Part shown: positions 29,105-29,644 of the stretch, piece by piece
Numbering within the stretch: the first letter of the stretch is position 1
Layout: each line of letters begins with the position of its first letter
Origin: Escherichia phage vB_EcoM-UFV09
Length of the DNA stretch: 64,000 nt
Sequence record: MZ291552.2
Strand: one strand, 5' to 3'
Position numbers and translations under genes: made by a program
Notes under the pieces: model-generated
Told to the model about the DNA's origin: nothing
Databases searched by the model: none
What the model saw: the letters and a program-made list of their open reading frames with translations, nothing else

Positions 29105-29282
29105 CTAAACGAATAGGTTCATGAATGCCATATCCCTGAACAGAAATTTCTGTCGTAGGATAAATTCCATCAATATCACCCATATTCCAGGCTTCGTTAA
29201 ATTGCTGTTCGCCTGAATTACTAAACCACTCGGCGAAAGCATTTAGCACATCTTTAGAACCTTCAATAATTATCTTTGCCAT
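29061..29282 (-). CDS. Hypothetical acidic protein, 73 aa
   Basis: ORF. Confidence 0.45.
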   Translation of the reverse strand: MAKIIIEGSKDVLNAFAEWFSNSGEQQFNEAWNMGDIDGIYPTTEISVQGYGIHEPIRLVEYDLCTGEEVKYD

Positions 29283-29644
29283 TACAAACTCTCGGTAAAG
29301 GTACGAGCGATAACGTCGCGCTGCTGTTCCGGAGTCAGAGAGTTAAAGCGAACTGCATAACCGGATACACGGATGGTCAGCTGCGGATATTTTTCCGGAT
29401 GCTTAACTGCATCTTCCAGAGTTTCACGACGCAGAACGTTAACGTTCAGGTGTTGACCACCTTCAATTTTAACTGTAGGCTGTTGCTCAATTTCAATTTC
29501 ACGGGCATGCAAACCGTAGAAAATTTCTGGGTCTACAAAAGAGTCCTCTTTAAAAGTTTTAGAGACAATAATTCGTGCTTGAATACCATCTTCAAAATAA
29601 ATAGTACCTTTATGCGTGCCTTCAAGAATTTGATATGCTTTCAT
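29282..29644 (-). CDS. Autonomous glycyl-radical cofactor (GrcA/YfiD-like; T4 Y06I-like)
   Basis: C-terminal [25 protein letters not shown] glycyl-radical motif; the 3' half of the gene is visibly GC-richer than its surroundings. Confidence 0.8.

Follow-up and report, generated by a model that had tools for sequence, protein, structure and literature searches.

A 172-nucleotide tract identical to Escherichia coli grcA within the vs.6 gene of a T4-like phage: probable recurrent overwriting of a phage glycyl-radical domain by host alleles

The vs.6 gene of Escherichia phage vB_EcoM-UFV09, as found in the 64,000-nucleotide (nt) stretch of record MZ291552.2 analysed here (hereafter the window), encodes a small protein, Vs.6 or Y06I, which ends in a glycyl-radical domain. 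Within the DNA for that domain lies a tract that is identical, letter for letter, to part of grcA of E. coli, the host gene for the stand-alone glycyl-radical protein GrcA (YfiD), and on both sides of this tract the sequence is of a phage type. Taken together, the evidence makes it quite probable that the gene is an ortholog of T4 vs.6 with a spare-part role for pyruvate formate-lyase (PFL), and that its DNA is a mosaic produced by recent and recurrent overwriting from the host. The parts of the gene on which the argument depends are as follows.

29282-29644, minus strand: vs.6 (Y06I) coding sequence (CDS) from the list of open reading frames (ORFs), 120 amino acids (aa) plus stop; phage autonomous glycyl-radical cofactor
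29467-29644, minus strand: phage-type 5' half, codons 1-59 and the first base of codon 60; an AT-rich, diverged GrcA N-terminal region
29295-29466, minus strand: host-identical, putative conversion tract of 172 nt; gene nt 179-350, equal to E. coli grcA nt 200-371 with 0 mismatches
29360-29362, minus strand: codon of Gly95, the predicted glycyl-radical site in the motif RVSGYAV, aligned with GrcA G102
29282-29294, minus strand: phage-type 3' end, the third position of codon 117 followed by GAG AGT TTG TAA

The tract is sharply bounded. A codon alignment places its limits at positions 2-3 of codon 60 and positions 1-2 of codon 117, and in blastn 5426/5426 complete E. coli genomes have a grcA match of 97.8% identity to gene nt 179-363. 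Over the 180-nt tail the identity of the window to E. coli grcA is again 97.8%, with all four mismatches falling in the last four codons, where every difference is synonymous (phage ACC GAG AGT TTG, host ACT GAA AGC CTG). The contrast between 4/12 mismatches at the 3' end and 0/172 in the tract is significant (Fisher P=1e-5), while upstream only 61/123 nt of the 5' half of vs.6, about 50%, agree with E. coli grcA. In other words, a near-identical block is flanked by roughly half-identical sequence on one side and by 4 mismatches in 12 on the other, as is characteristic of a conversion tract. Phages without a host-identical tract have ACA GAG AGT CTA at the end of the gene, which the 3' end of the window's vs.6 resembles. 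The sequence GAGAG (29289-29293) sits 6 nt upstream of the ATG of the next gene, vs.5, and the phage-type 3' end may have been retained as the ribosome-binding site of vs.5; T4 itself, with a host-like GAA at the GAG codon, weighs against such retention.

The composition of the gene changes at the same place. The fraction of G and C (GC) is 0.486 over 29282-29466 and 0.343 over 29467-29644, against a window mean of 0.351, and in a sliding-window computation (sd 0.044) the 3' half stands at z=3.1, with only 0.74% of 185-nt segments as rich. At third codon positions the value (GC3) is 0.45 for the tract, 0.217 for vs.6 codons 1-60 and 0.43 for the E. coli tail, such that the shift inside the block is donor-like. 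The only segments richer in GC lie at 35.3-36.8 kb, in a cluster of 11 tRNA genes (36066-37080) or in a conserved stretch beside it, and megablast against E. coli genomes returned no other chromosomal match in the 64 kb beyond the tract.

The ORF is evidently the direct ortholog of T4 vs.6/Y06I, and more than a relative of it, since the two proteins share 98.3% aa identity (118/120 by tblastn) and T4 has the corresponding gene (NC_000866, 63557-63919, labelled 'autonomous glycyl radical cofactor GrcA' in RefSeq). The order vs.7-vs.6-vs.5 in the tk-e region is that of T4, the window being a segment of a Tequatrovirus (T4-like) genome whose vs.6 is 100% identical to that of Escherichia phage vB_EcoM-UFV05; at least 80% of vs.6 is contained in 744 deposited phage records. 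Like E. coli GrcA, Vs.6 is a small (~14 kDa) stand-alone glycyl-radical-domain protein. Over its last 60 residues, from E61 to L120, it does not differ from E. coli GrcA; the Pfam Gly_radical model covers residues 60-101 with 67 bits (cutoff 22.2; E=2.5e-18), and residues 92-98 form the PFL-type radical motif RVSGYAV. The column of Gly95 is invariant across an alignment of 8 phage homologues, and we take this residue to be equivalent, by literature numbering, to PflB G734. Residues 58-120 align to the C-terminus of PFL. A preliminary description of this DNA, made from its letters alone, had already recognised the 120-aa ORF, its GrcA-type C-terminus and its likeness to T4 Y06I, all of which these searches bear out, the last as direct orthology.

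That description had also held the first 55 residues to be unrelated to GrcA, which is not so. With phmmer, the best match of Vs.6 in the PDB is E. coli YfiD/GrcA (6OWR; E=9e-42), and the alignment runs from residue 22 to 120 of the phage protein and from 28 to 127 of the host protein, such that residues 22-60 pair with GrcA 28-67, GrcA's own N-terminal region; within this part a 12-residue phage stretch pairs with host ARCIVAKAGFAED. An NCBIfam model, discussed below, extends equally far into the N-terminal half. Moreover, a 20-residue motif of this half is common to several phage genera, and the phage-type N-terminus joined to a radical domain is also found in Mosig-, Jiaoda-, Karam-, Slopek-, Pseudoteven-, Krisch-, T5-like and Asterius phages. 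Because the same combination is spread over so many genera, the two-part architecture of vs.6 is old and phage-wide, and predates the host-identical tract. Since the host-identical block is internal, with phage-type codons at its 3' side, and the architecture around it is older, the tract most likely represents the overwriting of an older phage homologue by homologous recombination, without the construction of a chimera via capture. Of the preliminary proposal that the gene is a chimera of recently captured host sequence, what survives is the GC-rich and apparently recently host-derived 3' half; the capture itself gives way to overwriting of a phage gene already in place. Equally, 172 nt at 100% identity, where other genera reach 68-86%, is more than an anciently acquired and ameliorated gene would be expected to retain, and the nucleotide comparison with grcA proposed there gave the uniform match in E. 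coli described above.

Could the protein sequence alone have kept the two genes identical? An ancient acquisition of the domain, with nt identity held by very strong purifying selection that includes synonymous sites, would accord with a tail protein that is 60/60 identical to the host's and with the columns that are invariant across phage genera. Host genes, however, do not behave in this way: the window tail is 96.7% identical to that of Escherichia sp. and 90.6% to that of Citrobacter, within the tract the grcA genes of Salmonella and E. coli are at only 83.9%, and overall host species differ by 7-16% of tract nt, yet by 0-2 aa. Phages behave likewise, in that CYPEBC003 and Slopek encode a tail protein that is unchanged or almost so, with 22-25/56 codons synonymously different. 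Since hosts and other phages alike vary synonymously with a near-constant protein, the letter identity does not come from selection on the protein. Against any sampled host grcA, the tails reach ~73% in T5-like phages, 68-79% in Asterius, ~77% in Karam, ~80% in Krisch and 83-86% in Slopek/Pseudoteven phages, and in Karamvirus, T5-like phages and Asteriusvirus there is no rise of GC3 in the tail over the N-terminal half; the tails of these three groups, being both far from hosts and compositionally flat, show no recent overwrite.

A second contrast comes from comparing the window with two Mosigviruses, for which the nt identities, gene by gene, are given here.

vs.7: 72%
vs.6 5' half: 89-91%
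vs.6 tract: 99.4-100%
vs.5: 69-70%
vs.4: 65-66%

Given the divergence of the vs.6 5' half between the genera, 0/172 mismatches has P=4e-9. The tract is far less diverged than the 5' half and must therefore have been homogenised after Tequatrovirus and Mosigvirus split; the block is phylogenetically incongruent with its flanks and sorts instead by match to host species. A tract 100% identical between genera whose flanking genes are at 65-72% is, with the synonymous divergence above, what effectively refutes purifying selection on synonymous sites, which we regard as hardly credible.

Nor does identity by itself say anything of direction, and E. coli could in principle have obtained the 3' end of grcA from a T-even phage. 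In this regard, when E. coli grcA is compared with that of Escherichia sp., Citrobacter and Salmonella, its tail and its N-terminal part diverge to the same degree (Escherichia sp., 0.990/0.989; Salmonella, 0.846/0.839), and because the two parts diverge in step the transfer appears to have run from host to phage. The host-like GC3 of the tract (0.45, where the remainder of the phage gene has 0.22), its presence in all 5426 E. coli genomes and the Klebsiella-type alleles borne by Klebsiella phages also speak against the reverse transfer, which we consider extremely improbable; we infer the same direction for each individual event. Still less probable, to the point of being negligible, is that host contamination or chimeric assembly placed grcA in a phage contig. 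Short identical stretches of paralogues can mislead assemblers, and locus L130, described below, may be such a chimera. Against this, T4, T2 and other phages, 744 genomes sequenced independently in all, have the full gene with the same junctions, the reading frame is kept through the tract, phage-type codons bound it at its 3' end, and T4 Y06I has been expressed and biochemically studied (PMC8683613).

The tails moreover differ according to the host. In a reciprocal test across 50,697 phage records, 505 records, mostly of E. coli phages, had at least 95% identity to E. coli grcA, to which Klebsiella phages had 80-87%; conversely, ~105 Klebsiella phage records had at least 95% identity to Klebsiella-type alleles, to which E. 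coli phages had 85-88% (grcA nt 202-369/374). The clearest case is the Klebsiella Jiaodavirus vB_KpnM_17-11, in which GC3 jumps from 0.25 to 0.60 and a perfect run of 164 nt to a host-type grcA locus, L101, begins at the same Glu codon. The GrcA encoded by L101 is of host type and complete (127 aa), and the flanks of the locus share 78-92% identity with L098, a sister Klebsiella-type metagenome locus, and with named loci of Klebsiella and Raoultella. A second Jiaodavirus, the IMG/VR contig L203, is identical to vB_KpnM_17-11 for ~160 nt from the start of the gene and matches another allele, L100, at five diagnostic synonymous sites, and both phages retain identical phage-type last six codons. 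Thus vB_KpnM_17-11 with L101 and L203 with L100 are independent events from different donor alleles. Among E. coli phages, the 3' junction is a mosaic of host and phage states from phage to phage, and three single nucleotide polymorphisms (SNPs) of the tract in individual phages are natural E. coli-type grcA alleles with the same base, a coincidence with P of about 0.02 for position alone and 0.001-0.003 with the same base. The best reading of these patterns is that the tails have been copied repeatedly from the current host, that is, a recurrent host-to-phage conversion.

The host alleles for this comparison derive from a scan of genome contigs that gave 80 grcA loci, K. pneumoniae itself not being among them. 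In that 80-locus set the best Jiaodavirus donor reached only 91.7%, and the Klebsiella-type alleles came from a metagenome scan; L100 and L101 were judged to be bacterial by their full-length host-type GrcA, their flanks like those of named Klebsiella and Raoultella loci, and the size of their contigs.

Two other sequences belong beside these. Phage PKO111, which has a K. oxytoca host, has Jiaodavirus-like phage-type gene ends and a tail with GC3 of 0.60, for which no host allele in the sampled set is closer than 87%; it may have a donor outside the species sampled, K. oxytoca for instance, or its conversion may be an older one. Locus L130 (metagenome contig OHAV01008836.1, 1683 nt) is an E. 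coli-type grcA in which the first ~100 nt of the tail are identical to pflB-type sequence (aa VMNREMLLDAMENPEKY); either pflB was the source of a gene conversion of grcA within the genome of a natural strain, or this short contig is a chimera of assembly.

Several points weigh against recurrent overwriting of a GrcA-type gene from the host. T-even phages degrade cytosine-containing host DNA, which should leave fewer chances for exchange. The 5' junction is the same in all Tequatrovirus and Mosigvirus genes examined, and because it is invariant a single conversion followed by spread from phage to phage could explain most of the pattern in these two genera; the evidence for several E. coli donors comes from few sites and from seven host alleles only, and the donors L100 and L101 are metagenome contigs. 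As to the protein, the NCBIfam equivalog model for GrcA, TIGR04365, aligns with Vs.6 residues 20-120 at 154.9 bits, below its cutoff of 170, a shortfall that arises because the N-terminus of Vs.6 has diverged, the model having been built for bacterial GrcA. Lastly, vs.6 appears to be dispensable, at least in laboratory stocks, since the gene is disrupted in RB55, a phage of the T4 species in which the CDS is not annotated and only the last ~35 codons are in frame, and possibly in L203, which has a 1-nt homopolymer deletion; both are either pseudogenes or sequencing errors.

Of the alternatives, the one to be taken most seriously is accordingly a single conversion or capture in an E. coli phage, then spread between phages during co-infections of Tequatrovirus and Mosigvirus, with no ongoing exchange with the host in these genera. 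The common 5' junction is as this would have it, as is the intermediate identity of the vs.6 5' half (89-91%, with flanks at 65-72%), such as the transfer of a larger piece of vs.6 between phages would produce. The mosaic states of the 3' junction and the three SNPs that coincide with host variants do not fit a single event, however, and the Jiaodaviruses add at least two events with two host alleles, such that the process recurs in the family; we rate the single event as unlikely. For the E. coli phages themselves, the same data are no more than suggestive of repeated conversion over the spread of one converted allele. The furthest extension of recurrent conversion would be that the vs.6 tail is a continuously rewritten 'host stamp', in which the allele of the local host is re-copied during lytic infection and the phage gene evolves in concert with that of the host. 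This we put forward tentatively, as a proposal with slightly less than an even chance of being right.

For the mechanism of recombination and the benefit in vivo we infer the following. A fragment of host grcA DNA would anneal to phage DNA at the one block whose similarity suffices for strand exchange, and the annealed host sequence would then be copied into the phage DNA. Upstream, the block would end where usable homology runs out; its downstream edge would be fixed by the end of the gene and the start of vs.5. Once carried, a perfect match of 170 nt would make further exchange easier, and because it does so, we propose, lineages with the tract stay host-identical and lineages at ~75% do not acquire it.

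With regard to function, T4 Y06I is one of two biochemically validated GrcA-type members (PMC8683613). In the account given there, both YfiD and Y06I take the glycyl radical from PFL-activating enzyme and rescue PFL cleaved at G734 (Knappe and co-workers), and Y06I together with that enzyme restores O2-cleaved PFL in vitro (Wagner et al. 2001, as cited in PMC8683613). Since Vs.6 of the window has the same motif and a tail identical to the spare part of the host, its expected partners are PflA and PflB of the host. If Vs.6 acts as the T4 protein does, the PFL-activating enzyme of the host (PflA) would install the radical on Gly95; Vs.6 bearing the radical would dock on PFL that has been cleaved by oxygen at Gly734, and would replace the lost radical domain, restoring the production of acetyl-CoA and formate. 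T4-type phages shut off host gene expression. A phage copy would be useful, presumably, because after this shutoff a micro-oxic cell is unable to replenish GrcA, and the fermentative energy metabolism of the infected, micro-oxic host might thereby be kept running.

Vs.6 could instead serve as a spare part for, or otherwise assist, the phage's own glycyl-radical enzyme NrdD, the anaerobic ribonucleotide reductase, a role that the preliminary description had raised as an additional one. The window does encode both NrdD (9598-11415) and NrdG (9131-9601), spare parts for other glycyl-radical enzymes are conceivable (PMC8683613), a role in nucleotide metabolism has been the subject of speculation (Nolan et al. 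2006), and in Asteriusvirus A4 the vs.6 homologue is placed between nrdD and an activase gene. The suggestion finds no counterpart in the protein, though. The tail is of the PFL/GrcA type, identical to host GrcA and alignable to the PFL C-terminus, BLASTP against the NrdD of the window detects no NrdD-like glycyl-radical tail in Vs.6 (E=2.6), and the radical motif of NrdD is of another type, RRTCGYLG following a cysteine-rich CxxC...CxxC segment. Repeated overwriting by host grcA, furthermore, fits a host PflA/PflB partner. Service to NrdD in place of host PFL is, on these grounds, very unlikely. The A4 gene (positions 327-689 of locus L097 in this 355-kb jumbo Escherichia phage) lies between nrdD and a DUF4326 gene, which is followed by the NrdD activase gene; this order suggests co-regulation with anaerobic functions. 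Its GrcA-like tail is fully ameliorated, with GC3 of 0.15.

The gene vs.6 and its activity are already known, its conserved Gly_radical match in T4-like genomes having been described by Nolan et al. (2006). For its nt identity to host grcA, or for conversion that tracks the host, no prior report was found in the searchable literature, an earlier remark in a T4 review remaining possible. The pattern of conversion belongs with known host-phage intragenic recombination in auxiliary metabolic genes, of which the closest analogue is that of psbA/psbD in T4-like cyanophages, where there are signatures of intragenic exchange with the host copy (Sullivan et al. 2006, PMC1484495). In both cases a host-derived metabolic gene in a T4-like phage exchanges within the gene. 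In vs.6, by contrast, the exchanged block coincides with a single domain of a 120-aa gene, has sharp edges and matches the host letter for letter, its boundaries recur across genera of enterobacterial phages, the donor alleles track E. coli or Klebsiella, and only the host-to-phage direction is evident. Nearer relatives differ in smaller ways. T4 Vs.6 has the same length, position between vs.7 and vs.5, host-identical tract and 5' junction; it differs in two aa (Q54 of the window is P in T4, and R73 is H) and is host-like at the T117 and E118 codons, where the window is phage-type, making the window tract ~5 nt shorter at its 3' end. E. coli GrcA (6OWR, TIGR04365) shares 60 aa and 172 nt exactly, whereas Vs.6 is 7 aa shorter, is strongly diverged over its N-terminal ~60 residues, which are of a phage-wide variant (MKAYQILEG...), and is phage-encoded inside a run of minus-strand phage genes. 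The GrcA-like genes of T5-like (Demerecviridae), Krisch-, Karam-, Slopek- and Asteriusvirus phages have the same two-part architecture and invariant radical motif, with tails of 68-86% to any sampled host grcA.

Around vs.6 the ORFs are vs.7, vs.5, vs.4, regB, vs.1, vs and the lysozyme gene e, and the elements immediately adjoining it are these.

29652-30032, minus strand: vs.7, upstream neighbour from the ORF list, 98% aa identity to T4 Vs.7
29061-29282, minus strand: vs.5, downstream neighbour from the ORF list, 73 aa; its ATG overlaps the vs.6 stop (TAATG)
29650-29653, minus strand: GAGG, a Shine-Dalgarno-like motif read from the sequence, 5 nt upstream of the vs.6 ATG and overlapping the vs.7 stop codon

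The TAATG overlap may reflect translational coupling of vs.6 and vs.5. Scanned for promoters and terminators, 28700-30800 had no more candidates than shuffled sequence.

There are some departures from T4 in this region. The frame and length of vs.5 differ (73 vs 58 aa), and vs.8 has two matches to T4 Vs.8 in different frames (30534-30629 and 29981-30565; residues 1-32 and 26-219), pointing to a frameshift or to a start other than that of T4. The internal-protein locus (30565-31550) is unlike that of T4, its ORFs 30671-31144 and 31161-31478 both starting MKTYKEFI..., the first of them with a weak match (32% identity) to T4 IPII. The T4 gene denV (endonuclease V) is absent, a tblastn search with T4 DenV having found no match across the 64 kb. 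Further away, the GC-rich stretch at 35329-35581, with GC up to 0.51, adjoins the tRNA cluster and is 95-99% conserved in ~555 T4-like phage genomes, in some of which it is left without annotation; it possibly corresponds, we presume, to the small stable RNAs of T4, and an Rfam search of the GC-rich region at 34.8-36.1 kb gave no family at E<=0.01. Within the cluster, 36336-36660 (tRNA-Asn/Tyr/Met/Thr) is 82-89% identical to tRNA clusters on ~260 E. coli plasmids of ~70-120 kb, which are presumably phage-like plasmids.

For annotators, the consequence is that a phage 'grcA' is a mosaic and not simply a captured host gene. More broadly, vs.6 offers an unusually clean case of a strictly lytic phage repeatedly overwriting one domain of an auxiliary metabolic gene with the allele of its current host. 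Homologous exchange between lytic phages and the host chromosome has long been assumed and rarely quantified, and here it is testable with marked T4 and E. coli alleles. If the tail is indeed rewritten continuously, such recombination would be frequent enough for direct measurement despite the degradation of host DNA, and the tail would record the species, and even the allele, on which a phage recently grew. In that event vs.6 could be used as a marker of a phage's natural host, an example being the E. coli tract that is present in all the Tequatroviruses from Yersinia, Salmonella, Serratia or Citrobacter. Among the Tevenvirinae, which include many candidates for phage therapy, the sequence of the tail may indicate the recent natural host.

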